From: Azolla caroliniana
Taxonomy: Eukaryota > Plantae > Polypodiophyta
Length of the DNA: 64,000 bases
Direction of reading: 5' to 3'
NCBI GenBank assembly: GCA_043228905.1
Contig: JBHGNT010000008.1
Coordinates: 13,516,001 to 13,580,000, forward strand
Shown: piece after piece, positions 22,201 to 58,000 of the stretch
How the letters are laid out: each line of letters starts with the position of its first letter
Numbering within the stretch: the first letter of the stretch is position 1
Notes under the pieces: model-generated
What the model saw: the letters and a program-made list of their open reading frames with translations, nothing else
The model's database searches: none
What the model was told of the DNA's origin: nothing
Position numbers and translations under genes: made by a program

Positions 22201-24394
22201 CACACATATGAACTTGTGGAGTTGCCGAAAGGAAAGCGGGCACTTCGAAACAAGTGGGTGTTCAAGCTGAAACCGGGAGATGCCGGAAACCCCCCGAGAT
22301 ACAAAGCCAGGATCGTGGTGAAGGGGTTCCAGCAAAAGAAGGGCGTCGACTTCGACGAGATATTTGCCCCGGTAGTGAAGATGACCTCCATCCGGACGGT
22401 GCTGAGCATAGCGGCAAGCATGGACCTCGAGGTAGAACAGATGGACGTGAAGACGGCATTCCTTCACGGTGACCTCGAAGAAGAGATCTACATGCAGCAA
22501 CCGGAAGGATTCGAGAAGAAAGGAAAGGAGCACCTGGTATGCCGGTTCAAGAAGAGCCTCTACGGTCTGAAGCAGGCTCCCCGGCAATGGTACCGGAAGT
22601 TCGACTCCTTCATGACAGACGAAGGGTACCACAAAACGCAGACCGATCACTGCGTGTTTGTGAAGAAGTTCGAAGGAGGAGACTTTCTAATACTCCTCCT
22701 GTACGTGGACGACATGTTGATCGTCGGACGAGACCAGGTCAAGATACGGATGCTGAAGAAGGCTCTTCACCGAACCTTCTCAATGAAGGACCTGGGTCCG
22801 GCGAGGCAAATACTAGGGATGCACATTATCCGGGACCGGAAGAAGAAGCAGTTGTGGTTGTCACAGGAGAAGTACGTGACAAAGGTGCTTCACCGGTTCA
22901 ACATGTCGGAAGCAAGACCGGTCGGGTCAACACTCCCGGCAAACTGCAAGCTGTCCAGGAAGCAAAGCCCCAAGACAAAGGCTGAGAAGGAGGTCATGAT
23001 GAAAGTACCATATGCCTCTGCCGTCGGGAGCTTGATGTACGCAATGGTGTGTACCCGACCGGACATAGGATATGCAGTCGGAGTGGTGAGCCGGTACATG
23101 AGCAATCCCGGCAAAGAGCACTGGAACGCGGTCAAATGGATACTCCGATACCTAAAGGGCACTTCGAACATGTGCCTCCGATTCGGCTCCGGTAAGCCCG
23201 AACTCGATGGATTTACCGATTTGGACATGTCGGCTGATGCGGATACCAGCCGGTCCACATCAGGGTATGTGATGACGTATGCAGGGGGAGCTGTTTCGTG
23301 GCAGTCGAGGCTGCAGAAGACGGTTGCGTTGTCAACCACGGAGGCGGAGTACATGGCGGCTGTTGAAGCCGGCAAGGAAATAATATGGATGAAGGAATTC
23401 ATTAGAGAGCTCGGTATCCGGTAGGAGGAGTACCGGCTCTACTGCGATAGTCAGAGTGCCATCCACCTTGCGAAGAACGCGGCCTACCATTCCCGGACGA
23501 AACACATCCAGCGTAGATACCACTGGATCCGGGAAAGGATAGAAGACAAGGAGTTCGTGCTGACGAAGATCCACACGGACGAGAACAGGTCGGATATGCT
23601 GACCAAGGTGCTCACACCCGACAAGCTGGAAGCATGCCGGAAGAGGATCGGATTGGAGAGACATCCCATGCCGAAGTGAAGGGGGAGTTTGTTGGGATTT
23701 TCGGTCCCTCCGGATGGGATGTCCGGAGATGAATGACGGCAAGCCCGGTTGCGGTTACGGAACCGGAGGATGAAGAGTACCCGGCATGAAGCCGGATGAA
23801 GAGTACCCGGCTACGGAGTCGGATGATGTAGACCCCGGCTACGGAGCCGGATGATGAAGACCCCGGCTACGGAGCCGGATGATGAAGACCCGGCTACGGA
23901 GCCGGATGATGAATGTACCCGGAGAGAGATCCGGATGCGGGGACATATTTGTGAATATGTTTTGCCAAGGGCCCTGGAGGCTATATTTGTAAATAGCCCT
24001 AAAGTCATATGTGTATAAATATGACTTAGGGCAAACAATTTTATGTTGCTACTCATTTTTCTGTTTTTCCACTCTAGAGGAGTGAAGAGAGAGCAACCGT
24101 GAGAGAGATAGAGCGTGAGAGAGGAAGAGGTCGACGCCTCTGTGTAATACCGCCGCCTGTGGCGAGGACAGCGAGCTCAAGGTCGTCGCCTTGCAGCTCG
24201 CCATTGTATATTTCTCTGTGCATAGTTTTGGTTTGGAGTCTTGCACTCCCGTGGTTTTTCCCGTATAGGGTTTTCCACGTTAATCCCTGTGTTATCGTGT
24301 CTTTCTCTGTGTTTCCTATTTTCTGCTGCATTGATTCGTGATTTCTCGGTTGTGGCCGAACGGTGAAGGTGAATCGGAGCGTGGATTCGTAACA
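19208..24394 (+). mobile_element. Young Ty1/copia (Tork/Tnt1-like) with LTRs 19208-19967 and 23690-24394
   Basis: TG..CA LTRs nearly identical apart from repeat copy number. TSD AACAG at 19203-19207 and 24395-24399. Met PBS at 19970-19981 and PPT gaagggggag at 23678-23687. Confidence 0.97.
19998..23678 (+). pseudogene. Copia gag-pol (gag, IN, RT, RNaseH) with an internal deletion/frameshift and a premature stop
   Basis: Contains LWHKRLCH, RADNGGEY, QMDVKTAFLHG, LYVDDML and STTEAEY. The CCHC knuckle and protease DSG motif are missing near 20630. TAG at 23422-23424 interrupts RNaseH. Confidence 0.93.
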
Positions 24395-29951: not shown

Positions 29952-30218
29952 TGATAAGAAAAGATATATATTATGTGAAGAAAATGTACAGTAGCTAGGA
30001 GGCTTAAGACTGGCGTTGAACCGATTTGGTTCGAAATAATGCCTTGTGCCTCCTTTTATAGTGTTCTAAGGAATACTCCTGAAGTTTCTAGAATGTTCCA
30101 GAGAAATCTGGAATATATATCTAAACCCTAAATAATATTCTATGTATTACAATGTATAGTCTAATGGTCAAGAGCTCGACCCATGTAGTATAAGGTCATG
30201 GGTTCGAGTCTTGCCATA

Positions 30219-33200
30219 TCATGACACTATCCCCCCTTTAAAACGACGAGTGTAACAAGTCGTTTTGGATTGAGGACCCGGTTTGTTTGGATATTGATGA
30301 TGGAAGTCTTCAAGAAGAGCATGAGCATTGGTGACATTCTCTATCGGTTCCCAAGTACGCTCGCTGGGACTATATCCTAGCCAGTCGACTAGATAGTAGA
30401 GCTTGTTGCGAACAAGCTTGGAATCAAGGATGGCGGCAACCTCGTACTCAGGTCCATCTTCAAGCTCGATCGGGGGTGGAGGCTGTGTAATACGTCCTGG
30501 GATGGTGCTTTCTTGATAGGGTTCGAGGAGAGAACTATGAAACACCGGATGTATCCGAAGTTGTGGAGGTAGATCAAGACGAAAAGCGACATCATTAATC
30601 TTTCCGATAATATAGAAAGGACCTAATCGTCGATAATCCAACTTCTCGCATAGGTGAGTAGTCTTGATGTGTCGTCGGAGTAGCCATACCCAATCTCCAA
30701 TGTTAAAACTAGATGGGAGTCGATGACGATACGCATAAACCTTGTGTGTTTGTTGAGCTTGTTGGAGATGAGTAGATAAATCCGCTTGTATCTTGCGTAA
30801 ACTCTCCAAACGATTCTCTGCGCAAGGATTTGTGGACACCTCTGGGGTTTCAAGTACACACCACTGGGGGTGACATCCCGTATAAACATAAAATGGCGTA
30901 ACTTTCGTGGATGCGTGGATAGAGTTGTTATAGGCAAATTCGGCGAAGTGGAGAATATCTGCCCAATCATCCTGATGATAGCTGAGAAAGCACCGCAGAT
31001 ACTGCTCCAGCGTTTGATTGGTTCGTTCGGCTTGGCCGTCGATTTGTGGGTGGTAGCCGGAGAAGAGGTTACAAGTGACCTTGAGCATGTTAAAAAGGTG
31101 CTTCCAGAATTTTGACACGAACTGGGGTCCACGGTCGCTGATGATACTATCAGGAAGTCCATGATGCCGACATACTTCACGCATGACAATTTCGGCAGTG
31201 TCTTCACTGGAGATCTCCTTAGCACATGGCAAGAAATGAGCCATCTTCGTATATCGATCGACCACCGTTAGAATCGCATTGAACCCCTTAGAGACTGGAA
31301 GATCTGTGATGAAGTCTATAGCAATGGATTGTCACGGCTTGCTTGGAATTGCTAATGGTTCTAATAAACCATATGGATGATGCCTTGGCATTTTCGCTCT
31401 GCAGCATGTACCACAAGTCCGTACAAAATCCTCGAAAAATTGTCGCATACAGGGCCACCAGAATGATCGTTGTACTAAATGTAGTGTTTTAGTACTACCA
31501 AAATGCCCAGTTGTATATGTGTCATGACAGTTTTGCACTACTTGAAGGCGGCAAGAACCATTAGGAACATACAAAAGTTCTTTAAAGAAGAGTAATCCAT
31601 CATGGTATTTGAATTGCCGATAGTCCGTACCTGGTGGTTACGACTGTGAACACAACGCTCGAGAGGGATCAATTTGTGCTAGTATAGCTTGGGCGAACGC
31701 ATCTGTCTTCAAGTCTTCGCGTATGGTATCGATAACGCGGGAATCCATGGGCATGTCAAAGATCTTTGTTGCTTGTAGTCGTGCCGGTCCCAAGATGACT
31801 TGTTTTTGGTTATCGAAAGCTGGCTCGCCGGGACGGGGTGCTAGGTACGAATGCCGTGATAATGCATCGGCCTTCCCTTGGTGCTTCCCGAGACGATATG
31901 TAATTTTGAAGTCGAAACGCGTGAGGAAGTGGGCCCACCGAGCTTGACGTCGATTCAACACACGAGCATCCTGAAAGTAGGCAAGGTTCTTGTGGTCACT
32001 AAATACGGTGACCGGATGAGAGGATCCCTCCAGAAAATGCCTCCATTGCATAAAAGAATCCACTATTGCCAATAGCTCCTTATCATGAATTTCGTAGTTG
32101 ATTTCGGCGGCGTCAAACTTGCGTGAGTGAAAAGCCACAGGATGTAGCTTCTCATCATTCCCCTGTTGTGACAGAATGCTCCCCCAATGCAAAATCCGAT
32201 GCGTCAGCTTCGATAATAAATGGTTTTTTCCGGATCTACATGAGCTAGAATTGGAGCCGATGTAAATGCCTTTTTAAGACTCTTGAAAGCCACGTCCGTT
32301 TCTTCAGACCAAATGAACGGTTGTCCCTTCTTGGTAAGTTGTGTGAGAGGTAGAACGATCTTTGAGTAATCTTGTATGAACTTCCGGTAAAAATTGGCAA
32401 AGCCTAGGAAGCATTGCACATCCCACACCGAACGTGGAGTCTGCCATTCTACCACCGTTTTGACCTTAGCTGGGTCCATGGAGATGCCTTCTAACGAAAT
32501 GATGTAGCCGAGAAATTCCACTTGGTTGCACCCGAAACTACATTTTTTCCAGCTTTGCATACAGACCATGTTCTCGAAGTCGTTTTAGTACTAATAATAC
32601 ATGAGAATCATGTTCTTCTTGGGTCTTTGAATAAACCAGTAGATCATCCAAATAGATGATCAAACAATCATCCAATAGATCTCGGAATATATCATTAGCC
32701 ATGTGCTGGAAGACCATCGGTGCATTAGTGAGGCCGAACGGCATGACCGTATACTCGAAGTGTCCATATCTGGTGCGAAACGCGATCTTCCATTCGTCTC
32801 CTGGTCGGATCCGTACGAGGTTATATGCTCCCCGTAAGTCGATCTTCGTGAAGAATCTGGCACCATTGATCCGTTCTAAAAGACTTGAGATAAGGGGAAG
32901 AGCATACCTATTCCTGATTGTAACCTTATTCAGGCCATGGTAATCTACAACAAGACGAAGTGATCCATCCTTTTTCTTGACGAAGAAAATGGGCGCGCCG
33001 GCTGGAGATTTCGAATGCCGGATGAAACCATTTTCCAAATTCTCCTCTATATAGGCCCGAAGGACTTCCAGCTCGGTTGGTGACAAATTGTAGATCGGTC
33101 CATATGGCGGCTCTTTTCCCGGTTGTAAATCGATGGGGCAATCGTACGGTCGATGATGAGGAAGTGTGTTGGCTTGTACTTTATCGAACACATCAGCGTA

Positions 33201-33805
33201 ATGACGATACTTCTCAGGAAGTTGAACAGTGGATCCTTCTTTAGTGGTGCTGGAGGGGTTTACTGATATTGCAAAGAGGAACATTTCCTCCTTGTGCCCT
33301 TCTTTACGCAACTGACGTAGCGAAATGGTTGCCATCTTCTGAGTTGACCCTTGGGTTTGTCGACACCGGATTTCTCTTGTTCTCCAATCTATGTCTGGGT
33401 TATGTAACTCGAACCATGGTAATCCTAAAACTATGGGATGTTCTGGGATACTAATAATATTAAATGATACTACACATGCAAAGTTATCTAGGACAATATT
33501 AATGGGCTCTGACTCTTCTATGATATTTCCGGAAGCAATGGGACGTCCATCAATGACTACTACAGAGGCTGGACATTGGAGTTTTCTTAGGGATATCATA
33601 TGAGCTTGAGAAAATTTCTTATCCATAAAGCAAGAGTTAGCTCCGGAATCTAGGAGTGCTAGGACATGTACTGGAGGGGTACTTTTAGTACTAACTATTA
33701 CTTGGGCTGCGAACACATCACTAACTTGCTTAGAGGGAATGGAACCACTAATGGGCTGCACAGATCTAGGGCTGTCCAACCAAACGGCTCCTATTTTGGT
33801 TGGAC
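30219..33805 (-). pseudogene. Pol (protease, RT, RNaseH, integrase, chromodomain) with frameshifts and stops
   Basis: Contains LDSGA, YLDD, YEIHDKELLAIV, SDRGPQF, DGQAER, GPF and EYEVAAILD...YLVDWLGY...TWEP, split over five ORFs. Confidence 0.93.
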
Positions 33806-34957
33806 TTAGTCGTTTAACTCTTCTTCTAACTGACTAAGGACATCAAATCTGTTTGCTAGATCTGGGCTATTAGTACTATTAGGACTATCAGATATCCCTA
33901 CTGAAATAGGCTCGGGTTTAGTACAATTAGAACTAGTGACTATTTGGTTTACCTGTCTTCTTGGCCTATGGGGGCAATTTATTGCAATATGTCCTGGTCC
34001 ACCGCAGTAAAGACATAGTCGATTTGTACGGCGTCGTTGCTTTTCTTCTTCGGATAATGGCCCTCGACGACATGTAGTGTCAATCTCCATCGGAGTCGGA
34101 GTATTCGCTGGAGGCGCCTTATATGACTCCCTCGGAAAAGGTCTTGCTACCACTGAGGCGTAGGTGGGCTCTGATCTTGCCCTCGACATCTGTAGTTGTC
34201 GTTCCGAACGTCGCTCAAAGAGGCGGTTGTCACATCTCACCGCGCGACTGATTGCTTCTGTTAAGGACTTTGGCTCTTCGGGGAAGGTCAAGAGTAAATC
34301 CTTGACGTCGTTGCGTAAACCATAACGGAATTGCTCCATCAACGCTTGATCATCCCAAGGGATATCAGCGGCGAGTAGGCGAAAATCTGCAGCATATGCG
34401 GAGGCTGGACGGTCACCTTGGCGTAATCGCCGAATTTTGTTGATTGCGGTCCTGATGCTGTCAGTATCTCCGAAATATGCTTTAAACTCACCTAGAAACT
34501 CTTCAAAATTGTTGAGTAACGGGGATTCCTTTTCTAATAGTGGAGCGAACCATGCCAACGCTGAGCCACTTAACAAAGTGCCTACTAAACCCACTCGCGA
34601 TGCATCGGTGGGATACCGGGAAGGATGCATTTGAATAACTAATCGTACCTGGTTTAGGAACCCTCTAAACTGCGATTGCGTTCCATTGAACTTCGTGGGA
34701 AGGCCAATCTTGGGTTCTTTATGAATCCCTTGTGTTTCGGGCCCTTGTTGTTGCATCGCTACGATGGTTGCTTCGAGTTGTTGCACGCGTAATGCAAGTT
34801 CCCCATGATGTTGTTGCATTTGCTGCCTTTCTAAGGAGATTTGCTGAAGATCCCCCAGCAACCGTTGGTTTTCTTGTTCCAAAGCATGGAACTTCTCTTT
34901 CAAGCATTGAAATTCCGAGAAAACAGATTGATATTCTTCAGCGCTAACAATGGCCAT
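33806..34957 (-). CDS. Retrotransposon Gag with CCHC zinc knuckle
   Basis: Intact 383-aa ORF with LRQG...YAADF and CLYCGGPGHIAINC. Confidence 0.92.
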   Translation of the reverse strand: MAIVSAEEYQSVFSEFQCLKEKFHALEQENQRLLGDLQQISLERQQMQQHHGELALRVQQLEATIVAMQQQGPETQGIHKEPKIGLPTKFNGTQSQFRGFLNQVRLVIQMHPSRYPTDASRVGLVGTLLSGSALAWFAPLLEKESPLLNNFEEFLGEFKAYFGDTDSIRTAINKIRRLRQGDRPASAYAADFRLLAADIPWDDQALMEQFRYGLRNDVKDLLLTFPEEPKSLTEAISRAVRCDNRLFERRSERQLQMSRARSEPTYASVVARPFPRESYKAPPANTPTPMEIDTTCRRGPLSEEEKQRRRTNRLCLYCGGPGHIAINCPHRPRRQVNQIVTSSNCTKPEPISVGISDSPNSTNSPDLANRFDVLSQLEEELND

Positions 34958-36209
34958 GGGATGAAAGAAAAGAGGAATAAGAGATTAGTAGGAAATGAGA
35001 GAGACAAAAGGTAGGAAAATCGGTTCAAACTGTCAGGAACAGTACTAAGACAGAGAAGGAATTAGTACTAAAAGAAGTATTAGTACTAAGAGAGGTGAAG
35101 AACTCTCGAGAGAAGGAAAGAGTGAGTGAGAGGGAGGGAGAGAGAGAGAGAGAGAGAGAGTGATGATAAGAAAAGATATATATTATGTGAAGAAAATGTA
35201 CAGTAGCTAGGAGGCTTAAGACTGGCGTTGAACTGATTTGGTTCGAAATAATGCCTTGTGCCTCCTTTTATAGTGTTCTAAGGAATACTCCTGAAGTTTC
35301 TAGAATGTTCCAGAGAAATCTGGAATATATATCAAATTTCTATAATAAAACATAAATGAAAATAATATTCTATGTATTACAATGTATAGTCTAATGGTCA
35401 AGAGCTCGACCCATGTAGTATAAGGTCATGGGTTCGAGTCTTGCCATATCATGACAGCCGGTCGTCGGGTCCGTCGTCGATTGCCGCTGGTTTTGGTTGG
35501 CCAAAACTTTTACAAGTAGCTAGGCCACACCCACTCATCCAGTTAGCTTAGTTCAAGTCACCTTGAACTCTCTATGTTCCACACAAAGATAATAGCTTTT
35601 GCTCTGCCTTATATATGGTGAGATCCTTATTTGTCCTATCTATGTGGGATATTTCATAGTTTTATCTTTCTGTTTTCCTTTGCAAACTTTCTACCCACAT
35701 AACTTGAGACTTAGATGTTTGTTTCTTATGTAGTAAAGTGCATTTAAAAGCTCTTGAAGACCTCCATCTTTTTGTACTAAGATATTAAACTTATTTAAAA
35801 TAGTATTTTCACTATTATTGTTTTATATGATTAATACTCGATTTCGTATGCTTTATGCGATTTTCACAGTATTGCCGAAAATCTTCACGATAACGCTTCT
35901 TCACTTAGTCCATTATTTACTAGAAGTAATTGAGAGATTTACTAAGGAAGATCGTAGGGAGAATATTAAGTTTAGGGACCAATGTGTTTTAGAGGAGATT
36001 GTAGTGTCTATGAAGTCATCCCTACACTTACTAAAAGGGGTAGAGAGCATCTAGATAAGCTTGGTGCAAAGAGAGCAGCCCTTCACATGGTTATAAACAT
36101 AGAACGTAATATTCATGTTCATGCAAGCATTCCAACGTTTGGAAACGAACACATTTGAAATGGGAAAAATACATGCTCCTTTTATTTTTTTTGCATTTAT
36201 TATTATTAC

Positions 36210-36690
36210 AATTTAGCTCACCCTAGTGGTAAGGAGTCATGAATGCTATTGTTGTCTATGTCTTGGGTTCAATTCCCAATTTTCTCATCTCTTTCTCTGT
36301 CTCTCATTAGTACCATGCCATAGCAAAAATTTATGTTAGTGTTATAATAGTTTTTTTCTTTTATTTTTTATTATTACAACTAAGCACAACCTAGTGATAA
36401 GTTGTTGTGCTACTACTACTTGTGTCTTGGGTTCAATTCCCAACTTTCTCATATCCTCTTGTTACTGTCATGGAAATTTTTTATGTTAGTGTCATGTTCC
36501 TTTTTCTTCTTTTTCTTTCTTTCTTTGTTATTAAAAATTAGCTCACCCGAGTGGTTAGTTGTTATTCTACTATTGCCTATGTCATGGCAAAATTTTATGT
36601 TAGTGTCATGTTCCTTTTTCTTTCTATCTTTCTTTCTTTGTTATTAGAAATTAGGTCACCCTAGTGGTAAGTTGTTATGCTAATACTGCC
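36210..36690 (+). repeat. Degenerate tRNA-derived (SINE-like) head repeated about 4 times
   Basis: tagctcaccctagtggtaag (A-box-like) four times and gggttcaattccc (B-box) twice, separated by T-rich tracts. Confidence 0.5.
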
Positions 36691-37049
36691 TATGTCATGT
36701 TTTCTTCATATTCTCAAATATACGTTTTATGAGTTTTTGAAAGTTTGATTATAATTTATAATGACATATTTTGATTCAATCTCTATAGTTCATACTCATT
36801 TTTTTGTAAAGTTTTAAAGTGAGGATGTTAGAGATGTCTTGATTTGCATCCCAAAAGTATGCATGTGATACAATGCAAATATTGAAACCATACTTATGTT
36901 GGTGGTTCACAATGGATTAGAGTCCACTTATTAGGATTGAGAGTGAATCAAAATATAATATAGACCCTAGTCAATCCAATCCAACTTTGAGTTGATTTAC
37001 CATACACGTTTCATTGAATCATTCTCGAATGCAAATGCACGTATGATAC

Positions 37050-39901
37050 ATATGGTTCATTCTATGGTTATAAATAGTACAAGAAAAAAAAATATAGTGA
37101 TACTAAAGTTGCCTTAGCCCTTGGTATTCAAAGAAGGAACTTGAGTAAGCATCGAACAAATATATAGTCAAATCAATTTAAGTGGATGGGGTTAGGCCGT
37201 AGACGACGATGTGATGCCTTGTCTCATGATATTATTGAGAAAGTGGATTCCTTTTGGACAAAAAACACACATGTCTATTACCCATAAGAATATACGGGGA
37301 GGCATAAGGGTAGGTGTAATGATGTGGTTGATGTGTATGTGTAAAGTAAATGAGTGTGTGAGGATGAGTATATGTATGGACACATGCACAATTATGTGCA
37401 TGAGTACAAGAATGTGTAACGGTCTTATTTGTAACGGTCATGTAACTGTTACATTGGATGTATTATATAAACCCCCTATGGGGTATGTAATGAATACAAC
37501 TTTTTTCCTCTCATTTTGTGTCATTTTCTATTTGTCTCTCTTTCTTTCTCTCTCTCACGTAACCCCCTTGGGAGGGGGGTCAAGCCACCCCAACAATACT
37601 TTTGGCACGGCCGAACGACCAACCCTCCTTTGAGAGGAAGTCCCCCTCTCTCCCTCTCTTTTGCGTCTCTATGTCTATAAGTGTGGGTATGTGGTACTGC
37701 AAACGAAACCTAAAGCCAATGGCATCCATGGCTATGGTGCCTAAAGCTCCCACCGCCGCCGCCATCGCTGCCGCCATCGCCGCTGCAATCGTTGCCGACG
37801 CCGCAATCCGCTAGAAGTGAAAGGCGAGAATATGAATGGAAGCAAGAAGAGAGGGGCATTCAAAAAGTGCGAGGGCATATCGCAAAATTTCAAAAATTGG
37901 AGGGCATCAAAACCGAATTTCAGAAGTTGGAGGGCAGATGACGGAATTTCAAAAGCTCGAGGTCATGAGACCAAATTTCAAAAACTGGAGGGTAGAAGAC
38001 AAATTTTCAAAAGCTCAAGGGCAGAAGATGAAATTAAAAAAACTGGAGGGTAGAAGAGAATATATATTTTTTAAAAACAGGAGGCCCTATGATAAAAACT
38101 TTTAAAAAAATTTGAGGGCAAAATTTTAAAGACCAAAGGGTAAAAAATATAAAACTCACTTCTCATGATGAAAAAAAGAATACAGAAACGCACAACACGA
38201 TTTCACGACCCATGCCACATTGAACTAGCCGATTGGTGTATGATCCAATTGCGACTTGTGCTGACCGAACGAGAAGGTTTGAGTCAAGCAAAGCTTCGAT
38301 CGAAGTTATCGATCGTAGAGCAGTGATCCAGTCAAGGGATTTCCGACCGTTGAGACGACCGATGGAATTCCGGTCGAGAAGAGTTGCCATGGCGAGTGGC
38401 TTCACCATGCAATGCACTATCCCAGAGGCGTGCCATGTGTTACCTGTAAGAATATACGGGGAGGCATAAGGGTAGGTGTAATGATGTGGTTGATGCGTAT
38501 GTGTAAAGTAAATGAGTGTGTGAGGATGAGTATGTGTATGGACACATGCACAATTATGTACATGAGTACAAGATTGTGTAACGGTCTTATTTATAACGGT
38601 CATGTAACCGTTACATTGGATGTATTATATAAACCCCCTACGGGGTATGTAATGAATATAGCTTTTTCCCTCTCATTTTGTGACATTTTCTATTTGTCTC
38701 TCTTTCTTTCTCTCTCTGATGTAACCCGCTTGGGAGGGGGGTGAAGCCATTCTAGGCTTCACCCCCCACCCCAACAACAATGTCTCACCGTATAAAAAAG
38801 ATGTATGTAGAAAACGTATAAGTCGGGGTAGGTACCAGATTCACCCAAGACACTTCTTGGAGATGACTGAGGTAATTCTTTTGTTTTTATCTATTTGGTT
38901 TTAAATATTTTTTTTTTTACTAAAGGATTCTATTAACGTTAACTATTTATTAACTTATGTAGGCTGAATTGTTCATGAACTTCAAAGACCAACATCCTAA
39001 CATCAATCTTGGATTTCGCAAGCTCCAAGGTTTGAAACCGTTTTTTGTTAGAGGAACACATGTTGTTGTGTGTACTACATTAAAATGGACATGTTGGGGC
39101 TTGGCTTGAACACTATGTGTACTGATTCTAAGGGTATACACGGGGATGGGTGTGTTTGCACTTGTGTGGTATGTAGACCAAATGGGAGTGATAATAGATG
39201 TAATGCACGAAACATGACTTATGCAACGGTTTTTGAGTTATGGAGATATTTTGTTTGCGAAAAACAACCATCATCTGAGTGGCATAATCGTACATGTCTT
39301 TTAAGAACATGTAAGGTTTGCCCACAACCATCATTTTGTAGATAGGAGCTTGATGTAGATAACTGTCATATTGTGAAATAGAAATATTTAGACTATGTGA
39401 CAGAAAATATAGGTAAGGGTCTCGTTAGTAAGCGTATCAAGGAAGTATATAAGGAGACATGTGTTGCTACCCTTGTCTTAGAGTTTAAGAACCAACTCGG
39501 GGAGTTCATTCCACATAACTTTAGGAGTAATTGGTAAAATTCATAGTTCAAGGAATGTATAAATAACTTACCACCAGATGTTCTAGTATTTGTTATTAAC
39601 TTTGTAGAGAACTATACGTTTAAAATTCAAAATGAGATTCAATCATTGCATTGGTACAATGACCAATGTACAATACTTGTACATATTTGCTACTAGAGAG
39701 AAGATGGTCAGTTACATAAGAAATCAATATTCTACATTTCAGATAAGAAAAAGCATGATATGCTATTTGTTCAACATTGTTCTAAGCTTCACCATGAAGA
39801 TTTATTGTCCTTGGGTGTTAAATTTAATCGCCATTGGGTTTGGAATGATGGTGTTACCTCGCAATTTAAGGTGACCCGGTCCTTCTACTTCATTGCAAGG
39901 T
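37050..39901 (+). pseudogene. Second Sola2-like transposase pseudogene, interrupted by the LTR element 37276-38779 and lacking the final catalytic exon
   Basis: FWTKNTHVSPYKKDVCRKR is restored by removing the insert. Intron 38872-38962. Motifs INFVENYTFKIQNEIQSLHW, FYISDKKKHD and WNDGVTSQFK. Splice donor at 39900. Left edge is approximate. Confidence 0.75.
37276..38779 (+). mobile_element. Non-autonomous LTR element (TRIM/LARD-like) with LTRs 37276-37598 and 38438-38779
   Basis: Direct repeats with TSD ATGTC at 37271-37275 and 38780-38784, and no pol motifs. Orientation is inferred from the TATA followed by a CT-rich U5. Confidence 0.9.
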
Positions 39902-39959
39902 GAGGAAATAATCCATATGTTTGGTACTTATAAATGAAAGTCTATTTTGGTATTACTCC

Positions 39960-40740
39960 ATAGTACTTATAAATGTTTGTATAAAATACTGAATTAGTAA
40001 TTCTCTAGCTACATGCACCCGTACTGTCTTGAAATGTGAATCTGAATTGATTGGCCATTTAGTTCTCTCCTTCTCGATTCACTAGTATTGATTATGGTAA
40101 TAACCATGTTAAGTAAACTTAACTTATAGCTTAGTATTGTCCTCCTACGTGCACAACTACTAATTAAGGTTTAGGCATTGTAATGTATCCTTAATTTACA
40201 ACTAAGTACTCAGATCCCACATGCATTGTCCTCTCTGGTGCACATGCACAAGTACTGACTATGGTTTACAACTAAGTACTCAGATCCCGCATGCACAAGC
40301 TAATTTATAACTTAGGACTGTATTCCTTCATTGGCACGAGTACTAATTTATATCTCAACACTGCCCTCTCTTGTGCATTAGTACTAATGAATAACTTAGT
40401 ACTATCCTCTTTCGTTCATTAGTACTAATTTATAACTTTGGACTGTCATCTGGCAAGCACAAGTACTAATTAATACTTACATTGTCTTCTCTCAATAATG
40501 TTTGTACTAATTCATAACTTAGTTGTATTCAACTTTGTTCGTCAGTACTAATTTATAACTTAGGATTGTCCTCTCTCATTAATACTAATTATTAACTTCG
40601 TACTATCCAACCATGTTCATTAGTACTAATTATTAACTTAGAACTATCCAACTTTGTTCATTAAGACCAACGTATAAGTTAGGACTGTCCTCTCTCATGC
40701 ATTAGTACTAATTAATAACTTAGTACTCTCCAACTTTGTT
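39960..40740. repeat. Degenerate array of the palindrome TTAGTACTAA, downstream of a transposase splice donor
   Basis: Recurring cattagtactaatttataacttag units of about 40 bp. Confidence 0.8.
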
Positions 40741-41507
40741 AAGAGTTTGCTAACGTAGACATATGTAAGATCAGAGTGTTCATTCCACTCATCACTCATC
40801 TTCTCACTGTCACATGTGTGCATAACAAGTAAACCAAAACAATGTCACGATGAGGGTAATCAATAACTTAACATTCCTATCATTACAAAACAACCAGCCC
40901 GATACAATAAACTTAGCTAGGTATTGAGTGGCACTTCCTCATCGGAGGTAGTAGACTACTGAGTGGTAGGAGGCAGTAGGAAATTAGCTACAATGCATAT
41001 CAAGTTAGTACTTAAACTGTGTTAAGTGTTTACTAATCTAGACATATCTAAGATAGGAGTGTTCATTCCACTCACGACTTTACATTCTCACTGTCACATG
41101 TGTGCATAACAAGTAAACCAAAACTGTGTCAAGATGAGGTTAATCAATAACTTAGCATTCCTTTCAATAACTTTGCATCCAATTCATAGTCTGGATAAGT
41201 AAACCAAAATAGTGTCAAGAAGTAGGTAATCAATAACTTTACATTCGGTAATCAATTACATACAACAATCAAACATCAATAAACTTTGGTTTTAGTTTTT
41301 TCTGGATCTTGTAATGCACCTATTTTTGGTTTCATTCTTCTCAGATTTCACACCCTTCATTATCTTAAAGCCATGAGGTAGTAAACTACTTAGTGGCAAT
41401 TCATCATCGGAGGGTGAAGCCAAGCTTGAGGGAACATTGTGCTCTATTGCAACTGCTTGAGATGCACACATTTCCAAGAAGATGTGGTCGATAGTCTTAC
41501 CAGAAAT

Positions 41508-44489
41508 CGTTGTACGTTTTAGGGTTAGGGTTAAGGGCGACGACGACGATGAATGATAACTATGATGATTGGTAATGAAGATAGACATGGTGATGGAGAG
41601 TATGATGGTGAGAGAGATCATATAGAGAAGCATTGCGGGGTAGGGGGTGGTGCCTAGAATGGCTCCACCCCCCTCCCAAGGGGGTTCAACATGAGAGAGG
41701 GAGAGAGAAGAGAAAAGGTGACAAAGAGAGAGATTAGACATAAATGTTCATTCATGTTTCCTTCATTCCCCATAAGGGGTTAAATAGTACAAGAGGGGGT
41801 AGATACATAGGGGTGTAGGCCCCCTCGAGCATTCATACTGGACACTCACTCACACCTCCTCGTATCCATCCACATGCACACACTTGTGCATGTGTTCACA
41901 TACGTATCGACTCACAATTACATTTATGCCTCCTACACATACACAACAACATCATGATAACATTCGACCCTCGATCATCACACTTGACTCTCCGTACATC
42001 TCGTACGGGGTAACACAATATGGCACGCCCGTGGGAAAGTGCCTTGCACGTCGATCCCACATGCCTTGATGATGATATTTCTTTGACCGGAACTTCCATC
42101 GGTCCTTTCAACGATCGACTCCCTCAATCAGAGTGCTTGACTCGAACATCTTTGTCGGTCAGCAAATCTTTCCGCGACACAAACATTCTCGTTTTGTCGG
42201 CTTACGAACTTCTTCATGGGTCCAAAATCATGTCGTGTGTATGTATGTTCTTCCTTTGTTTTGAGTGTGTGTGAGTAGTCTTGGGGATTTTCAAAATTTT
42301 GGTGGTGCCCTCTTGTTTTTTAAAATGTTATATTGTACCCTCATGTTTTTAAAATTTCATGGATGCCCTCATCTCCTTTTTTCCCTCTCTCTTGTATTTC
42401 TATTTGGTTTTGTTATGATTTGAGTTTTGCTTTTAGGTCGTTTTTCCTTCGCTTTTGTGTTTGTCTTCTTCTCTGCTTCTTACGTTTCTCTCTTGCCGTT
42501 GTCTGCATCTTTCTTTTCTTCCCGCCTTCTTGCGATTCGTTAGCTTTCTTCTCTTCAAGAGAAAGGCTTCTATCTTCCTCTTCATCCTCTTCCAATCTAT
42601 TTTATCTCTGTCTATTTGTCTTAGTTCATGCTCATCTTGTTATCTCTTTCTCCCCTCTGTTTCTTCTTCTTCTTCTTCTGTGTTGTTTCGATCCGTTTCT
42701 TCCTCCACTCATCGACCTGCTCTCCGTCGTTGTCATTGTCTCCTTCGCTTTTCGGCGGCTCTGTTTCCGGCTACGTCGCTTTTCGGTGTCAATGTCCCAT
42801 CGTCTGGTCGTTGCCGTTGCCGTTGCCATTGCCATGGTTGTACATTTCGACTGTCATCTCTGTCACTCTTTGACTCTGTTTGGCCGTCGTCCCGCTGTTT
42901 GTCCGTCTCCATCTTCGTCGTTCTCTAGCGTCGTCTGGTCCAGCCGCCTCCGTTCTGGCATTGTTTAGCCACTACGACCACTCTTAGGTCGCTCTCCGGC
43001 CTCTCCTCCATCTCTGTCGGTGTTCTAGCCTTCGAGCCATCTTAGTCCGGCTCGTTCCGGTCGGTTTTCCGGCAGTTAGTTCGGTTGTTGTCCGTCGTCT
43101 TTCGGTCGTGCATCCGGTCCGTCGTCCCGGCCGCCTGTCTGCATCTGGTTATTCCGACTGGTTTCCGGCCCTTCCGACCGCTCTCCAACCGCTCAGACTG
43201 TTGCCCGGTTGCTCTTCAGCCGCTGTCTGGCCGTTATTCGGCCATTCCGACCTCTCTACGGTCGCTCCGACTGTTGTCCGGCCACTTAGACACTTCGGCT
43301 GCTATCCGGTCACTCCGGCCACTCTTGCCCGTTGTTCAGCCATTCCGGCGAGTTCTGCCCATTTGGTTGTACTTCTGGTTCCTTGTTCCCGGCCATCTGA
43401 CTAGTCGTGTCTTTCCGCGTCGGTTTGTATTTCTTTGGCTTTCTTAATTGCCTTCTCCATCTTTGTTCCAACAATTCCCTTTGGTCCAGTCGTTTGCTTT
43501 CTGGCCATGTGTGTCCGGTCATATGTGGATAGAAATGCACTCTCGCATCTTTGGAAGATACAACATGTGGTGGTTGGGTCTCGCATCGATCATAGGCTTT
43601 ATTTCTCCCTTGCTTTTTTCTTCTTTCTTTGCGATCAAATCCACGCCAAAAAGACCAATCACATGTCAAACAAAATACACTTGTATAGACATTAATTTGT
43701 ATCAGAATCATGGCACGGATAATCAATCTGTCATTTCTTGCTTCTCATGCACATCATGGTCGCCATTTTTTGCATATTGTTGTCGATTCCATTTCTTGCA
43801 GATCATCACCACGTAACATTCTTCATCTTCCTTGCGCACAACATCACCCTGTTGCATTCCTCGACGGCTTTCAATCACCATCACCATTTCTTGCATATTT
43901 TGTCGTTATTGACTTGCATCGCCACATATCATTCTTCGACTCCGTCTCCAAAGGGGGGTCGCCTTAGCGGTTGCCAAAAGGTGTTGTACATTTTAGGGTT
44001 AGGGTTAAGGACGACGACGACGATGAATGATAACTATGATGATTGGTAATGAAGATAGACATGGTGATGGAGAGTATGATGGTGAGAGAGATCATATAGA
44101 GAAGCATTGTGGGGTGGGGGGTGGTGCCTAGAATGGCTCCACCCCCCTCCCAAGGGGGTTCAACGTGAGAGAGGGAGAGAGAAGAGAAAAGGTGACAAAG
44201 AGAGAGATTAGAGAGAAATGTTCATTCATGTTTCCTTCATTCCCCATAAGGAGTTAAATAGTACAAGAGGGGGTAGATACATAGGGGTGTAGGCCCCCTC
44301 GAGCATTCATATTGGACACTCACTCACACCTCCTCGTATCCATCCACATGCACACACTTGTGCATGTGTTCACATACGTATCGACTCACAATTACATTCA
44401 TGCCTCCTACACATACACAACAACATCATGATAACATTCGACCCTCGATCATCACACTTGACGCTCCGTACATCTCGTACGGGGTAACA
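41508..44489 (-). mobile_element. Non-autonomous LTR element related to 37276-38779, with LTRs 41508-42015 and 43982-44489
   Basis: 508-bp direct repeats and TSD GAAAT at 41503-41507 and 44490-44494. Shares the cctagaatggct..acccccctcccaag hairpin region and ~220 bp of internal sequence with the 37276 element in the opposite orientation. Confidence 0.92.
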
Positions 44490-45949
44490 GAAATCTCCTG
44501 AAGGTCATTGGACACATCATTCTTCAATTTTCCCGGCTCCGCTTCATGGGTAGACACCACTACCACTTTATTAGGAGTACAAACATGTTCCTCATCTTGG
44601 GTGCTTGTCTTCATTGCAAACTCCCCACTGATGATACTAGACACTTGCTCCAAGTGCAACTACGTGCAATATTTTGGACAGACACCTCATTCGTAGTACC
44701 ACCCTCTCCTTCTTCTTGTGTAGTTGCTACAATCTCCTTAATAATATAATCTTGTCCTAGGTTAAGGCTTTTTGTGGTGTTTTGGATACACACCTTATTC
44801 TTTGTAAAACCATGATCCTCTCCTTGGGTCAAATTCACATTCCCTACAAACTCCTCGTATAAGTTGCTTGTCCACTCCAGCCCCTCTTTCTGGGTGATTT
44901 CACATTCCTCATGTGTGGTAGCATCTGAGCCTGAATAATCAAGATTGCTCCATAAACTGCCTAAATCATTTGATGGTATTTGTGAATCTCCATGCTCTTC
45001 TATACCTAAATAAAATAGAGGGATGCAAGAACAATATCAATTCACATTCTCAAAAAAGTCAAAGCACCTAGCCAAATGTTTAAGGTTAAGGGACAAATGT
45101 TTACCTACTGTTACATCTTCATCCTGATCTTTTCTAGATGAGTCTTTGCATATGACCGTGTTTGTCACATGCTGTAGGACGTGGTTTGCATTGGCATCAC
45201 AATTGTCATTGTTGCTTGGGATGGTCCCAATTTCAAGTTGGGGCTCTTCATCATGCCAATATTTCACAACACTCTCTATATATTAATACACTTGTACATT
45301 ATTGTCACATGAAGTTATGGTGAAAATAACTATTAGATGAGAGGGCTCCCAACATATACCTAGAAGTGAGATAAATTCTTCTTCATATTGTGGCTCTGAA
45401 TCTGTATCTCCATTTTCATTACTCTTTTCTTCCTTGTCTAAAATCAAAAGTACGTAGTATTAGTCATTAAACTCATTAACTTTACAATAGCCACAAGTTT
45501 GTGAAAATTTGTATTACCCACCACCACAATCAACTTTGCATTTCTTCCCCTTTCCATACAATTTCCTTGCAGCATTACGCTTCTTCATAGACTCTTTGAT
45601 AGAAACATAATAAATTAGTAGTATACCAACATTTTAGAAATTAGAAGTGCAAACAAAATTACCATTACCATTCACACAGTCAGGGTGTGCCGAGCTAGGA
45701 GATTTTGTTTCAAGCAACACATCTTCAACTCTTCCAATGGCCCTTCTCATACATTCATTCTCACCATAAATTTCATCAAGTGCCACTAAGGAACGACCGT
45801 GGACTTTGGAATTTGCAATAGACTTTGTACGTAGTATCACGGGGCTTGGTTTGTCAATTACCTTCCCTAGTGTGGTGTTGCTAGATACTACAACATTCAT
45901 ATTATAAGCATACATATATAAGAGTACATATTATTATACCATGAGTCCA

Positions 45950-46875
45950 AAATTACAAATATTATTAGTACTTATTCAACTAAGAAAGAAGCAATAAAAT
46001 GTAATCAGTAATGTTAGTACTTAATCAACAACTTAGGACCTTAAAGGAATATAGTAAATTGATCCACCTGGACATGCATATTTCATCTGGTAATGAACAA
46101 TGTTAGTACTAAACAACCAAGACCGACATGCCTATTTGTTGGATCATCGAAAGCCTCCGTACTAATACAAAAAGTACAATGCAATAAGCAATGTTAGTAC
46201 TAATACAAGTTATACAATTAAACATTTAAGACCCTCCGTACCAAATAATCAATACTAAATCAATTGATCACGAAGGAATACAATTTAATCAGTATTGTTA
46301 GTACTTACTCAACAACTTAGGAACTTAAAGGAATAGTACTGATCCACCTGGACATGCATATTTCATCTGGTAATGAACAATGTTAGTACTAAAAAGCCAA
46401 GACATTCATGCCTATTTGTTCGGTCATGCAAAGCCTAAGTCAAGTGGACTCAAAACGTACAATGCAATAAACCAATGTTAGTACTAATACAAGTTATACA
46501 ACTAAACATTTACAACCTTCTGTACTAAATAATCAATACTGAATCAATTGATCACGAAGGAATACAATGTAATCAGTAATGTTAGTACTTAATAACATCT
46601 TAGGAACTTAAGGGAATAGTACTGAACCACTTGGACATGCATATTTGATTTGGTACTGAACAATGTTAGTACTAAACATCCAAGAATGACATGTGTATTT
46701 GTTCGATCATGCAAAGCCTAAGTCAAGTGGACACAAAAAGTACAATGCAATAAACAATGTTAGTACTAATACACGTTATACAACTAAACATTTAAGACCT
46801 TTAATACTAAATAATCCGCACTAAATCAATTGATCATAATGTATTACAATGTAATTAGTAATGTTAGTACTGAAT
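45950..46875. repeat. ~284-bp tandem repeat (3+ copies) built on aatgttagtactaa subunits
   Basis: Unit starts near 45997, 46281, 46565 and 46847. Confidence 0.85.
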
Positions 46876-49020
46876 CATGAAAAAAGGATCTTGAGGAAAC
46901 AATACTCATAGGTATAAGAACAGAACCAAAAGTAGAATTATAAAATTATAGTATACAAATTGCATAATGCTTAATCCCATACCATAGGAGTGTACTTTCA
47001 AACCCCAATCTAGGTACCGTTCGGCTCCAATTGTACTTTTACGGTCCAAACATATATTTTCTTTCTCGAAATGGTACTTAGCGCATAAAAAATGATATGT
47101 ACATACAAGCATGGTGTAATGATAGCATCCATAGACTCAAGCTTGACTCCAAGGCCATAGAATAAACACCTTCAGTGACGAGACACGACATACACTATAT
47201 TAGCACCAATGATATTTTATACCATAGAAGGTGAAAAAAGAGAAATATAAACCATTACCGTAATATAGTAATGTTTGTAATTCTACTTTCCATGCAAGCG
47301 GGATGCTCAATTACATCTGGACACGTAGTATCTAAACCTTTTTCTTTAAGACCCTTCATCGAACATGTTAGGTTCTCTTAATGTAGCTTTAAGCCTGATA
47401 ATTGCTCATCAATTTTAGAACGAGAAGACCATCATGTCTCTAGACCTTTCTTCTGTGCTTCCAGATGAGTACCCATAGTTGTGAGCTCTTTCTTCAACTC
47501 CTCTTTTAACACATCACTTTCAAAATTTTGCATTGTTGATGCAATACATTCGTATGTATTCGACATAGATGTGAATTGTTTCTCTACTGCCATCTCACCA
47601 GATGAAACTTCTTCCAAATCGGCTAGCAGTGCTTGCATTTTTGTTTGCATGGAATCTATACATCGCAACAATCACTCTTCATGTTTTTCTGTTAGTGTGG
47701 CTTTTTCTTTTGCAATTTGTTGAGTCAACACAGATGTCTGAGTTGGGATTGCAATATGAGAGGTACCCTCAGATTTCATGGTAATGTTGGTACCTGAGGA
47801 CCGTCTATAATGTGATGATCAATGATGAGCAAAATCTTCCAAATCAACTTCAATGCCACCATGGAGTTCACATGCAAATGCATGTGCAAAGACAGATGCT
47901 ACCTCATTGTTTAGCATATGTTTTGTATTATAAACTTGTTCATATCGTGACTTTAGTTCAGTGATATAATCCTTCTTCAATTGAGTGAGGTGGAAACCTC
48001 TCCTTGTCTAGGGTTGTTATGAGCCCCAAGTTTTCATCATCCACATGTTTAGGTCTTCATAAGTGTCAGGTCGTGCACGAAGGAAATAACCCATCCTAAT
48101 TTTGTACCTCGAAGGATGTTTGTGTGAATCTTCTTGCGCTGAGTTATTGAAAATGTCGACCTCCCTCTGGTGGGGGTTCTCTTACTTTCTTTGATGGGGG
48201 TCGTTTTTCTCTCCTTGCATGGTGTGTTGACATTTTCTTCTTCGTGGGTGTCTTTCTTGTCATTAGAATCATGTCTCTCTTCTTCGCCTCACATGCACAA
48301 CAATAGTAATTAATAGTAAAATCATGCACAAAAATAGTAAACAATATTAAATAATATACAATTCAAGGAGATGTCGGATATGAAACATAATGTTAACTCC
48401 CGATACATAACATATACATATCCATCATAACAGTTCTAAATCAAGTAGGAAAACAAGAATAATAAGAACGACAAGAACAACATGCACAAAAAAAAGGACA
48501 AGAACAAGTACAAGATCAAGATCATTTAACAAGAACCCTCTTTCAATATATCAACATGTACAAAATTCAAGAACCCTAAATGACAATATCACATAGAATC
48601 AAACATACAATAGAACATGTACCAAATGTCATTAGGGTTGGGGTTGTAAAAAATTCAAGCACCTATAGAAAATGACTTAAGCATGTTGACCGACTCTCAA
48701 ATTCAAGCATATGCATGTACAAAGCTCTCAAATGATCAAGGGAGAACAACAACAAAAAAACCCTAAACGATAATAACAAATAGAATCAAACATACAGATT
48801 AACATGTCCCAAACATCGTTATGGTTGCAGATGTTTAAGCATGTACAAGACTCTCAAATTCAAGCATATGCATTTACAAAGCACTCAAATGATCTAGGGA
48901 GAACAACAACAACAACAACAACAATTAAACCCTAAATGACAAAAACAAATAGAATCAAACATATAGTGTACCAAATGTCGTTGTTGAAGTCTTTGAAGAG
49001 GGGACGCGTTTGAAACACGG

Positions 49021-55012: not shown

Positions 55013-58000
55013 TTTGCCTATTTTCCTGGTATCCGTTTTGGTTTCCTCCTTTCTCCCCTTCAAGATACTGAAGACCAAGCATCTCCAAAAAATGCCCCAA
55101 CTTGTTGGTTCCGAGCGCCTTGGACATACCGTAGTTCGACTTCCCTGTTGAGAACCCAGTTGCTCATGTTGTTGTAGTAGATCGGGATCGAAGTCGATAC
55201 TTCGATCCGGAGGTCTTCTAGCAGCTGACGAAGCCAAATGGCTTCATAGGTGGCAATGGTAGCAACCCGATACTCAGCCTTAGTGCTCGAAAAAGCCATT
55301 GTCGGTTGCTTCTTGTTGCTCCATGGAATAGGTGCACTACCTAAAGAAAACATAAATCCGGATTTTGATCGCCAATCCGACGCATCACCGGCCTAGTTGG
55401 CATCTATATATCCGACTAGTTTCTCGGTTATACCATGTCAATATAACAATCCCCGTCCTTAGTGCCGCCAACATACCTCAATATTCGGTGCATGCACTAA
55501 AGGTGTTGCACGGTTGGCTTGTGCATGAATTAACTGATTGCTCCGACCGGATAGCTAATGTCGGGTCACTGATTGTTAAATAAATAAGGCTTTTGAGAAT
55601 TTGTCAGAACCGTGTCTCGTTGCAGGCCGATCCGGAGTCGGGATGAAGCTTCAGGTTCTAATCTAGGGGTGTGGAGATTGGTCGACAATCCGTCATGCCG
55701 AACTTGTACAACATATTTAGTACATAATATCATTGTGACAACAATATGCCGTCGCGGGTATGGATCACCTCGATCCCGATGAAGTAATGAAGGTCCCCCA
55801 GGTCCTTCATTTCGAATGCATCCAATAGCTGGGACTTCACGTGGCCGATTTTAGCAAGTTCGGGTCCGATGATGACCAGATCGTCTACGTATAACAAGAT
55901 ATATATTGGACCTTCCAGACCTTTTCAGATGAACAGTGAAGAGTTCGACTTTGATGTCACTAACCCCATCTTATGCAACCAGTGCGTGATCTTCGAATTC
56001 CATGTATAAGGGGCTTACTTCAGGCCATAAAAGGACTTTTTGAGTTGGCACACTCCCGACTTGTTCATGACTGACTAAAATCCTAGGGGCTGGATCATGT
56101 AGACATGTTCTTCAAGGTTCCCTTGAAGAAATGCATTCTTCACATCCATTTGGTGAAGAAGCCACCCCCTTGCCGCAGCACCCACTAGTACCACACGAAC
56201 CATTGTCATCTTCGCTACCGGGGCGAAGGTCTCATCGTAATCGATTATGTGGGTCTGCGTGTACCCTTTGGCCACTAACCAGGCCTTGTACCGGTTGACT
56301 GAACCGTCAACATTGTACTTTACCTTGTGCACCCACTTGCAACCCATCCGTTTGCAATGTCGGGGAGTGTCAACCAAGTCCTGTATGTCGTTGGCATCGA
56401 GTTCTGTAAAAGGTTTCTTGCGGAAGCATTAGAAAGAACAATACACAAGGAGAGAGAGAGAGTACGCAGGAGAGATAGAGATAGAGAGAGAGCAAGACAC
56501 ACTAATTTTCAAAATTATATGAATACTCTGTGCTCTGTATCTACAACGCACTCATAAGCGCTTTTTATACAAGTCCACACGGGACTGTTAGAAGTACGGT
56601 GTACTTCAATGCTCACACGAGCATCTGACACTAACTACGAGACTATAACTGCCTAGTAGTCTAACCTATACTAGGCTTCCAGTTACGGATTGGATCCGGC
56701 ATACCGGTTCATCTCGCTTACCGGCTCAGGCTTATTCAGCCGATCCGGCTCCGGTTGAGCTTGCCGCTCAACACTCCCCCTCAAGCTCAACCTGAGGTAG
56801 GGTCGTAGTGTCAACCTCTGTGGCAGCCGGTTCTTCCAACCGACTTCTCCTGGCATTGCTTCGCCTTGCTCGCGCTCCTTGTCCAGTCCGGTCCTGTTTG
56901 CCACGACCCCTTTGGTTCTGCGCGACTTAACCTTCGACATGTCTGCTCAATAGGCCCATCTCAGCTCCTTCGCTGCTATGACTCCGGCGCTTGCCAATCC
57001 GTCGGTTCCTCTGCGATGGCATCGACTTCCGCTGCGTCCGTGTCTCCTTGGCCTCTCGTTGATCCAACTCATCCGGATCCGTCTGTTGATCCGAATCGGC
57101 TATCTCCGACTCGTTCCAGCCCTTGTCCGAATCGGTATTCTCCGATTCGAATTTCGGCTTCAGGCCTCTCACCACATCGGACCACGTCCGGGTCTTGCCC
57201 TTCTCCGTGCTTCCCTTGGCTTCTTCAGATGGTTCACCGAAGTCAATTCTTCGTTCGACTCCGCATCATGGTCATTACAATCGTGAGGACCTCCGCATAG
57301 CATGCCCTTCTCTTCCTGAGTGTACACTTCTTCTTCACAGCCGCTCACTCCAACCTGTTCGGATGTGCCGACTTCCTTCGTCGACTCGGATGTACCGGTT
57401 CTTCTCTTACCTACGGGTTCAACAGTTTTTTTGCCTTTGCCCGTTTCGGTAGTGTCTTTGCCCTTGTGTCTCCCCCTCAAGTGCGGCACGTCGAGATGAT
57501 GAACACCAAGCATTTTGGTAAACTGCTGCAACTTGTCCGACCCGAGCGGCTTGGTGAAGTTGTCAACAACTTGCTGATCCGTGTGAACATACTGTAGTTC
57601 AACTTCACCGCTCACACACGAAGTGATAATGCACTTCTATGTGCTTTGTGCGAGCATGGAACACAGGGTTCTTGGCGAGCTGCATGCTACTGAGGTTATC
57701 GCAGTAGATCAGGATCGGGGTCGGTACCTCGATCCACAGGTCTTGCAGTAGTCGTCGAAGCCAAATGGCTTCGCAGGTGGCAACGGTCGCGCCCCGGTAT
57801 TTAGACTCAATGCTGGATAGAGCCATTGTTGGCTGCTTTTTGCTGCTCCACGTAAGAGCCGCGCTCCCAAGAGAAAACATAAAGCCGGAAGTTGAGCGAC
57901 GATCTGTTGCATCACCAGCCCAGTCGGCATCCGTGTAGCCGACAAGCTCTTTGGTTATACCTTGCCGGTATAAGAGCCCCCCGTCCTTAGTGCCGCCTAC

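Follow-up and report, generated by a model that had tools for sequence, protein, structure and literature searches.

How does a long terminal repeat (LTR) retrotransposon that has no polypurine tract (PPT) begin the second strand of its DNA? In canonical LTR elements, a tRNA primes the minus strand and an RNase H-resistant PPT primes the plus strand (PMC5371799, PMC10886601). The question is raised by two LTR elements in a stretch of 64,000 nucleotides of the Azolla caroliniana genome (assembly GCA_043228905.1, contig JBHGNT010000008.1, positions 13,516,001-13,580,000 of the forward strand), which is hereafter called the window. The original prediction, made from the letters of this DNA, was that the two elements carry sites resembling tRNA primers at both internal junctions, that no PPT abuts the 3ʹ LTR, and that the plus strand may be primed by a tRNA. 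The evidence described below suggests, with a probability that we place at roughly 85%, that tRNA-Arg(UCU) annealed to minus-strand DNA just upstream of U3 primes the plus strand in a PPT-less clade of Ty3/Gypsy elements.

Element 1 (37276-38779, plus strand) and element 2 (44489-41508, minus strand) lie in opposite orientations and are non-autonomous LTR retrotransposons, each with two LTRs, a target-site duplication (TSD) and a primer-binding site (PBS) for a host tRNA (Table 1). The LTRs of element 1 are 94.5% identical across 310 bp and are flanked by ATGTC, and those of element 2 are ~97.7% identical and are flanked by GAAAT; the TG...CA termini are mutated in single LTRs of these elements and intact in family copies. 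None of five frames tested inside the two elements has a Pfam match. The four junction sites lie where they had been placed, at 38420-38435 and 42021-42036 before the 3ʹ LTRs, and at 37603 and 43976 (minus strand) after the 5ʹ LTRs. Both families are abundant, with 1,466 and 705 first-look candidates in the 523-Mb genome, and 20 copies of each were sampled by likeness to the region of the 3ʹ site. This tRNA-like site is kept in all 20 copies of each family (with up to two and three mismatches, respectively), and the absence of an abutting PPT is borne out: within the 25 bases before the LTR, the longest purine run is 3 in 39 of the 40 copies and 5 in the other. A conserved block of about 220 bp beside the 3ʹ site had also been noted in both elements; it is present, as a gapped and loose likeness over ~340 bases, and its alignment score of 144 (maximum 42 in 200 shuffles) is still 107 against 40 when the site itself is left out. 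ARAGORN reports no tRNA gene anywhere in the window, and Rfam gives no match within 37000-44800.

The site at the PPT position proves to be ~40 nt long rather than 16. It comprises the last 18 nt of tRNA-Arg(UCU) with its CCA, short of one base, and upstream of these an insert of 12-13 nt followed by a segment of the tRNA T-arm. The site is written in the tRNA's own sense, with the CCA 2-5 bases before the LTR, and the minus-strand DNA at this position is therefore complementary to the tRNA. Genome-wide, the site pattern yields 2,513 matches compared with none for a reversed control, and these 2,513 copies of the one-base-short form compare with 11 that have the exact tRNA form. Across 22 sites representing different LTR classes, picked from 94 found, the insert has the pattern of a hairpin, with 90.9% of inner-helix cells paired and 13 cells changed on both sides. 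When duplexes with the minus strand were folded using RNA parameters as a proxy, the insert looped out and, of an incomplete set of 34 tRNA ends, tRNA-Arg(UCU) was the best partner for six of six sites.

The direction in which these elements are to be read is fixed by gag-pol in coding relatives. One coding element (L022/L091), nested in a copy of the element 2 family, is ~9,960 bp long, has LTRs that are 98% identical and a 5-bp TSD, and reads in the order 5ʹ LTR, TGGCACGCCC, gag-pol, an extra open reading frame (ORF) in sense, the tRNA-like end with CCA, two bases, and the 3ʹ LTR. Its Ty3/Gypsy affiliation is indicated by RVT_1 and RT_RNaseH matches in L022 and by gag, reverse transcriptase (RT), RNase H (RH) and rve matches in the close relatives P0002 and P0005, and tblastn places integrase (INT) after RH in L022. 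In another coding element (L092/L081/L082), the LTR is different and the PBS is TGGCGACCAC, but the same 3ʹ site recurs; over 41 nt, the 3ʹ site of element 2 is 93% identical to that of this element. Three further coding elements with other LTRs, making five in total, agree on orientation, as do records from other samples (L243 and L244, RT 77-78% identical), and the LTR order proposed for elements 1 and 2 is thus correct. Within the L022 family, junctions were read in 20 of the 150 listed RT matches: the tRNA-like site, and no PPT, occupies all ten visible 3ʹ junctions, the remaining ten being truncated or interrupted there, and an Arg PBS occupies 17 of 18 visible 5ʹ junctions.

A direct helper, meaning a coding element with the same LTR as element 1 or 2, was not found among the 40 closest copies (20 of each); the scan for pol covered those of the element 2 family, and the matches there were rejected as candidate helpers because they belong to neighbouring or inserted elements. 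The sense extra ORF that follows pol in L022 (3103-5460, minus strand) is open for 786 aa, has no Pfam match, and is shared at 32-36% with L243 and L244.

These coding relatives bear directly on the alternative offered by the original prediction, namely that ordinary Arg-primed elements have been read backwards because their LTR promoter points the other way, with tggcacgccc as their PBS and a PPT formed by the aaagg(g/a)ggg run. Element 2 does lend itself to such a reading: over 24 nt, its junction (42008-42031) shares 96% identity with the L022 5ʹ junction in that direction, and its 5-nt spacer resembles PBS-side spacers. Yet every coding element that shows both has the tggcacgccc site at its 3ʹ junction, with pol running antisense to it. 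Autonomous copies with pol in sense to this site, which the original prediction had named as evidence that would refute it, were looked for and not seen. Moreover, tRNA genes match the second TGGC site, and in one tandem locus the version of element 2 stands after the U5 end of a coding family's LTR, one that elsewhere precedes a PBS and gag-pol. The TTTTGGC site is the true minus-strand PBS: genes for tRNA-Arg(UCG) or tRNA-Arg(UCU) in this genome match it, and in family copies the exact match to the tRNA is longer. Because pol and this PBS fix the orientation, the aaagg(g/a)ggg tract is to be read as antisense leader and not as a PPT, and it lies ~25 nt from the LTR, whereas the PPTs of this genome's other lineages lie within a few bases. 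Ordinary PPTs were observed in controls from the same genome, which included gypsy families that bear an aRH domain, a copia element and the window's chromovirus. The backward reading is refuted for the coding families examined, and we consider it extremely improbable for the elements as a whole.

Both kinds of junction site match the genome's own tRNA genes, those for tRNA-Arg(UCU) and tRNA-Arg(UCG). Genes for tRNA-Arg(UCU) are represented by 12 pattern matches, of which ARAGORN calls five, plus two further isodecoders, and genes for tRNA-Arg(UCG) are likewise present. Two copies of the element 1 family (L143 and L148) have an 18-nt PBS that matches an Arg(UCU) isodecoder gene exactly, and L183 carries 39 nt of tRNA-Arg(UCG) at the U5 end of an element 2-type LTR. 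The U5 side is therefore the minus-strand primer site. Cer7 of C. elegans encodes its own minus-strand primer, and the 3ʹ site might similarly encode such a primer or pair with the element's own PBS, in which case the plus strand would begin in some other way. Pairing of this kind is feasible in the L022 family (-28.3 kcal/mol) but weak in element 2 and the L092 family (-13.5 and -10.9), whose PBS corresponds to Arg(UCG), and the explanation is contradicted because the two sites match different tRNAs in some families. Since PBS copies extended with real tRNA sequence indicate that a host tRNA primes the minus strand, and no other plus-strand primer is visible, self-pairing or self-encoding appears very unlikely. 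The genome also contains tandem clusters of tRNA-Lys(UUU), tRNA-Ile(UAU) and tRNA-Arg genes (L096-L104, L113-L115, L179), several with degenerate copies.

The idea of a tRNA-primed plus strand is supported by captured tRNA at five independent loci, where true tRNA-Arg(UCU) sequence with CCA stands at the U3 end of an LTR, which is the end at which the plus strand starts. Candidates came from searches for the exact tRNA form before NN-TG (11 matches), for longer copies with CCA (12 matches) and for the element 2 spacer (one match), and were sorted by reading their flanks and the direction of pol. In a complete coding element (L206), exactly 18 nt of an Arg(UCU) isodecoder and a 2-nt spacer precede the 5ʹ LTR; the captured tRNA differs from the element's own 3ʹ site, and the PBS of this element corresponds to Arg(UCG). 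Another coding element (L204/L205) has three head LTRs, and each joint consists of the U5 end, a spacer, the exact 18-mer, a 2-nt spacer and U3, while the element's own 3ʹ site is diverged. Longer captures comprise 56 nt of tRNA outside the 5ʹ LTR of an element-2-family copy (L201), 57 nt in a single event represented by three copies (L187-189), and ~56 nt, mostly tRNA, at an element-2-like single LTR (L389). Both 18-nt captures end just before A58, and copying of a retroviral primer tRNA has been described to stop before 1-methyladenosine at this position (m1A58) (PMC11251516). L194 and L204, which belong to one family, have tRNA at opposite LTR termini and in opposite orientations.

The 12 longer copies with CCA divide into eight that were assigned to the PBS side (from pol direction for L194, from a shared LTR for L186 and L196, and from spacer type for the others), the three copies L187-189, and one full tRNA copy without an LTR (L195). 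Four of the 11 exact matches were left out of the count of U3-end captures: L202, L203 and L208, whose flanks read as PBS-side, and L207, which is discussed below. In L194 and L201, a short segment of the anticodon loop is repeated upstream of the capture, as if RT had jumped between two AAGG motifs of the tRNA. In retroviruses, RNase H spares the final A of the primer of the minus strand, and the joints of L204/L205 keep one extra T in the U5-side spacer, as would be expected from such cleavage; alternatively, the T could be a base shared with the insert. Past the U5 end of L389, at ~2070-2112 (minus strand), the 5ʹ half of a further tRNA (Phe, anticodon GAA) has been copied in reverse; its Rfam tRNA match is weak (E 0.031).

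Captured tRNAs could also be by-products of template switching if the primer were the element's own RNA, folded as a tRNA T-arm ending in CCA, surviving RNase H, cut after the CCA, and thereby serving as a non-purine PPT. The 3ʹ site can indeed fold into a T-stem-like outer helix with an inner hairpin, the element would provide its primer in cis, as it does with a PPT (PMC5371799), and a switch onto free tRNA could leave products similar to those observed. This arrangement also draws strength from the one-base gap relative to the tRNA, which has been kept (2,513 copies against 11 exact) and which tRNA priming leaves unexplained. However, the outer U3 ends and the LTR-LTR junctions carry the sequence of the tRNA and not that of the element, and base pairing is the simpler explanation for the retained identity to a single tRNA, which extends to the T-loop. 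No LTR-LTR joint with an element-type site occurs among the 50 of 95 pattern matches that were checked by alignment; of the other 45, three were read separately and the remainder judged by eye from their letters. The power of this comparison is low, with one tRNA-type junction event against none of element type. Even if the element's RNA served as primer, the captures would imply that the tRNA had annealed to the minus strand at the 3ʹ site. Overall, priming by the element's own RNA is judged unlikely.

Priming by tRNA-Arg(UCU) could proceed as follows. The minus strand would be primed at the PBS by tRNA-Arg(UCU) or tRNA-Arg(UCG), as usual. After RNase H has cleared the RNA, the minus-strand DNA at the 3ʹ site would pair with ~28 nt of tRNA-Arg(UCU), made up of the T-arm and the 3ʹ 18-mer, in which one base of the tRNA would bulge out, and the 12-13 nt hairpin would be looped out at A58. 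The 3ʹ-OH of the tRNA would then be placed 2-5 bases before the TG of the LTR, where the plus strand must begin, and RT would extend it. The primer would normally be removed by RNase H; if it were retained, the minus strand would copy the tRNA and either stall at m1A58 or read on. A copy of an unremoved plus-strand primer would end up on the outer end of the 5ʹ LTR, which matches the positions of the fossils. Elements 1 and 2 themselves would depend on coding members of the clade, which would mobilise them in trans.

Several considerations weigh against this scheme. The evidence is genomic throughout, and plus-strand priming is what we infer from it. Five events are few, and each could reflect template switching to a free tRNA with no more than a likeness to the site. 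L207 and L369, two further candidates, had to be dropped because they are on the PBS side or ambiguous, and L389 is a tRNA/element chimera, with 8 nt from the hairpin arm of the element breaking the tRNA-Arg sequence at its U3 end. The presence of m1A58 in the host tRNA is an assumption. Both the kept one-base gap and the hairpin would weaken pairing with the tRNA and could serve a structure in the element's RNA instead. Although none of 500 shuffles reached the level of inner-helix pairing reported above, the structure was read from the same related sequences, and this count is to be taken as support and not as a p-value; the outer helix is 77% paired and has no compensatory change.

A broader proposal is likely, if slightly less secure: that a whole high-copy clade of Ty3/Gypsy elements without a PPT primes both of its DNA strands with host tRNAs, the second on DNA through a bipartite docking site gated by a hairpin. 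Since both ends would be primed by a tRNA, non-coding members might be copied from a transcript of either strand. Some non-coding families show the reverse of the coding families, with the long spacer beside U3 or a 2-nt spacer beside the U5-like end (window 42008-42031; L202, L203, L207 and L369); such reversed spacers may hint at polarity swaps in symmetric elements.

The boundaries of this clade were examined in a quick RT-only tree of 51 rows without named lineage references. The dual site was seen in eight rows, and all eight fall inside one 13-row clade (SH-aLRT 98), which excludes both the aRH-bearing elements and the relatives whose PBS is of Asp type. Sister rows include L266, Adiantum and other database proteins. 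Named RT neighbours come from Selaginella, Riccia, Marchantia and Adiantum. A PBS that we take to be of Asp type occurs only in the distant relatives L302, L307 and L313. In L301 and L302, purine runs precede a TGT, without a second LTR to confirm them. The aRH-bearing elements of this genome were set aside as relatives, as they are other families with normal PPTs and branch apart. They include young gypsy families (L071-L082), whose LTRs are 99.7-100% identical and which combine single frames of 1,734-1,768 aa with a PBS of Asn type and an ordinary PPT.

Compared with Ty3 and retroviruses, the elements share TG...CA LTRs, a TSD, a PBS-primed minus strand and, in the coding relatives, the order RT-RH-INT (PMC5371799, PMC10886601). 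With the non-chromovirus OTA lineages Athila and Tat/Ogre/Retand they share a 5-bp TSD, a length of ~10 kb, a non-Met primer, an extra 3ʹ ORF, and the lack of a detected chromodomain (PMC6317226). The likeness to Tat/Ogre elements that was drawn in the original prediction holds only loosely. It covers the Arg primer, which is described for Ogre, TatIII and some Retand elements (PMC6317226). It does not extend to the aRH domain (PF13456) of Tat, which was found neither in four L022 frames tested nor in P0002 and P0005. On the features compared, the clade also departs from Athila, as its PBS is of Arg type throughout and not the tRNA-Asp PBS typical of that lineage, and from Phygy/Selgy, as these are described with a 4-bp TSD and a Trp or Ala PBS (PMC6317226), compared with a 5-bp TSD and an Arg PBS here. 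The second tRNA site at the PPT position is a further difference from the OTA lineages, and the RT of the clade forms its own group beside sequences from non-seed plants.

The bipartite PBS of Ty1 and Ty3 and the primer activation signal of human immunodeficiency virus (HIV) also pair in two parts, with the acceptor stem and with the T-arm of the primer tRNA, leaving a loop between (PMC5371799, PMC11251516). Those sites act on genomic RNA in minus-strand priming, whereas the site described here is in tRNA sense and its target would be minus-strand DNA. At an LTR end, a copy of mature tRNA made by reverse transcription, CCA included, has been read as an unremoved primer in a Moloney murine leukaemia virus (MMLV) circle junction and in an HIV provirus (PMC12220202); there, the minus-strand primer at the U5 end is discussed, and in Azolla the copies are also at the U3 end, recurrent, and from one tRNA species. 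Helenus elements, which are TRIMs (terminal-repeat retrotransposons in miniature), are likewise non-autonomous LTR elements with tRNA-derived sequence, but their tRNA-like part is described as lying inside the LTR, with a normal PBS and PPT (PMC10886601).

Such variation as these sources describe concerns the minus-strand primer (PMC6317226, PMC5371799, PMC10886601, PMC12220202, PMC11251516). No description of tRNA-primed plus strands was found in the literature searched, a coverage that largely excludes subscription literature, and the Azolla elements are a known kind of element with a priming route that is likely new. If this is true, they break the textbook rule for retroviruses and LTR retrotransposons, in which a tRNA primes one strand and a PPT the other, the PPT is dispensable in a clade of thousands of copies, and these elements offer a natural model for the choice and removal of primers by RT and RNase H. 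Software that relies on the PBS and PPT to orient LTR elements or to filter them would probably overlook such elements or assign them the wrong direction.

Table 1. Coordinates in the window of the features of elements 1 and 2 and their surroundings.
Feature	Position	Strand	Remarks
Element 1 left TSD (ATGTC)	37271..37275	+	
Element 1 5ʹ LTR	37276..37598	+	both terminal dinucleotides mutated; U5 shorter than that of 3ʹ LTR
Element 1 minus-strand PBS, tRNA-Arg(UCU)	37603..37613	+	10 of the first 11 bases complementary
Element 1 internal 29-bp repeat array	37853..38056	+	
Element 1 3ʹ internal block	38100..38395	+	loosely common with element 2
Element 1 3ʹ tRNA-Arg(UCU)-like site at PPT position	38396..38435	+	T-arm segment, small hairpin, tRNA 3ʹ end and CCA; predicted docking site of plus-strand primer on minus-strand DNA
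Element 1 3ʹ LTR	38438..38779	+	starts two bases (TG) past CCA
Element 1 right TSD	38780..38784	+	
Element 2 TSD (GAAAT)	41503..41507	+	
Element 2 3ʹ LTR	41508..42015	-	
Element 2 3ʹ tRNA-Arg(UCU)-like site	42021..42060	-	five bases off LTR
Element 2 3ʹ internal block	42061..42355	-	loosely common with element 1
Purine run, candidate alternative PPT	43950..43958	+	antisense, just downstream of PBS
Element 2 minus-strand PBS, tRNA-Arg(UCG)	43967..43976	-	8 of 10 complementary; other family copies closer
Element 2 5ʹ LTR	43982..44489	-	
Element 2 TSD	44490..44494	+	

Other repeats accompany the two elements. The clade is represented a third time at 63908-63948 (minus strand), by a 3ʹ tRNA-like site that is followed by TG and an LTR heading towards 63500. 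Degenerate tandem arrays surround the elements at 40300-40758, 45961-46909 and 36177-36699, with periods of ~41, 284 and 115-170 bp. The chromovirus at 30130-35456 (minus strand) has a chromodomain and a PPT and no TGG-type PBS after its 5ʹ LTR, an arrangement compatible with self-priming of the Tcn1 type. Two Ty1/copia pol regions are also present, at 20548-23424 (plus strand) and 57600-60240 (minus strand).

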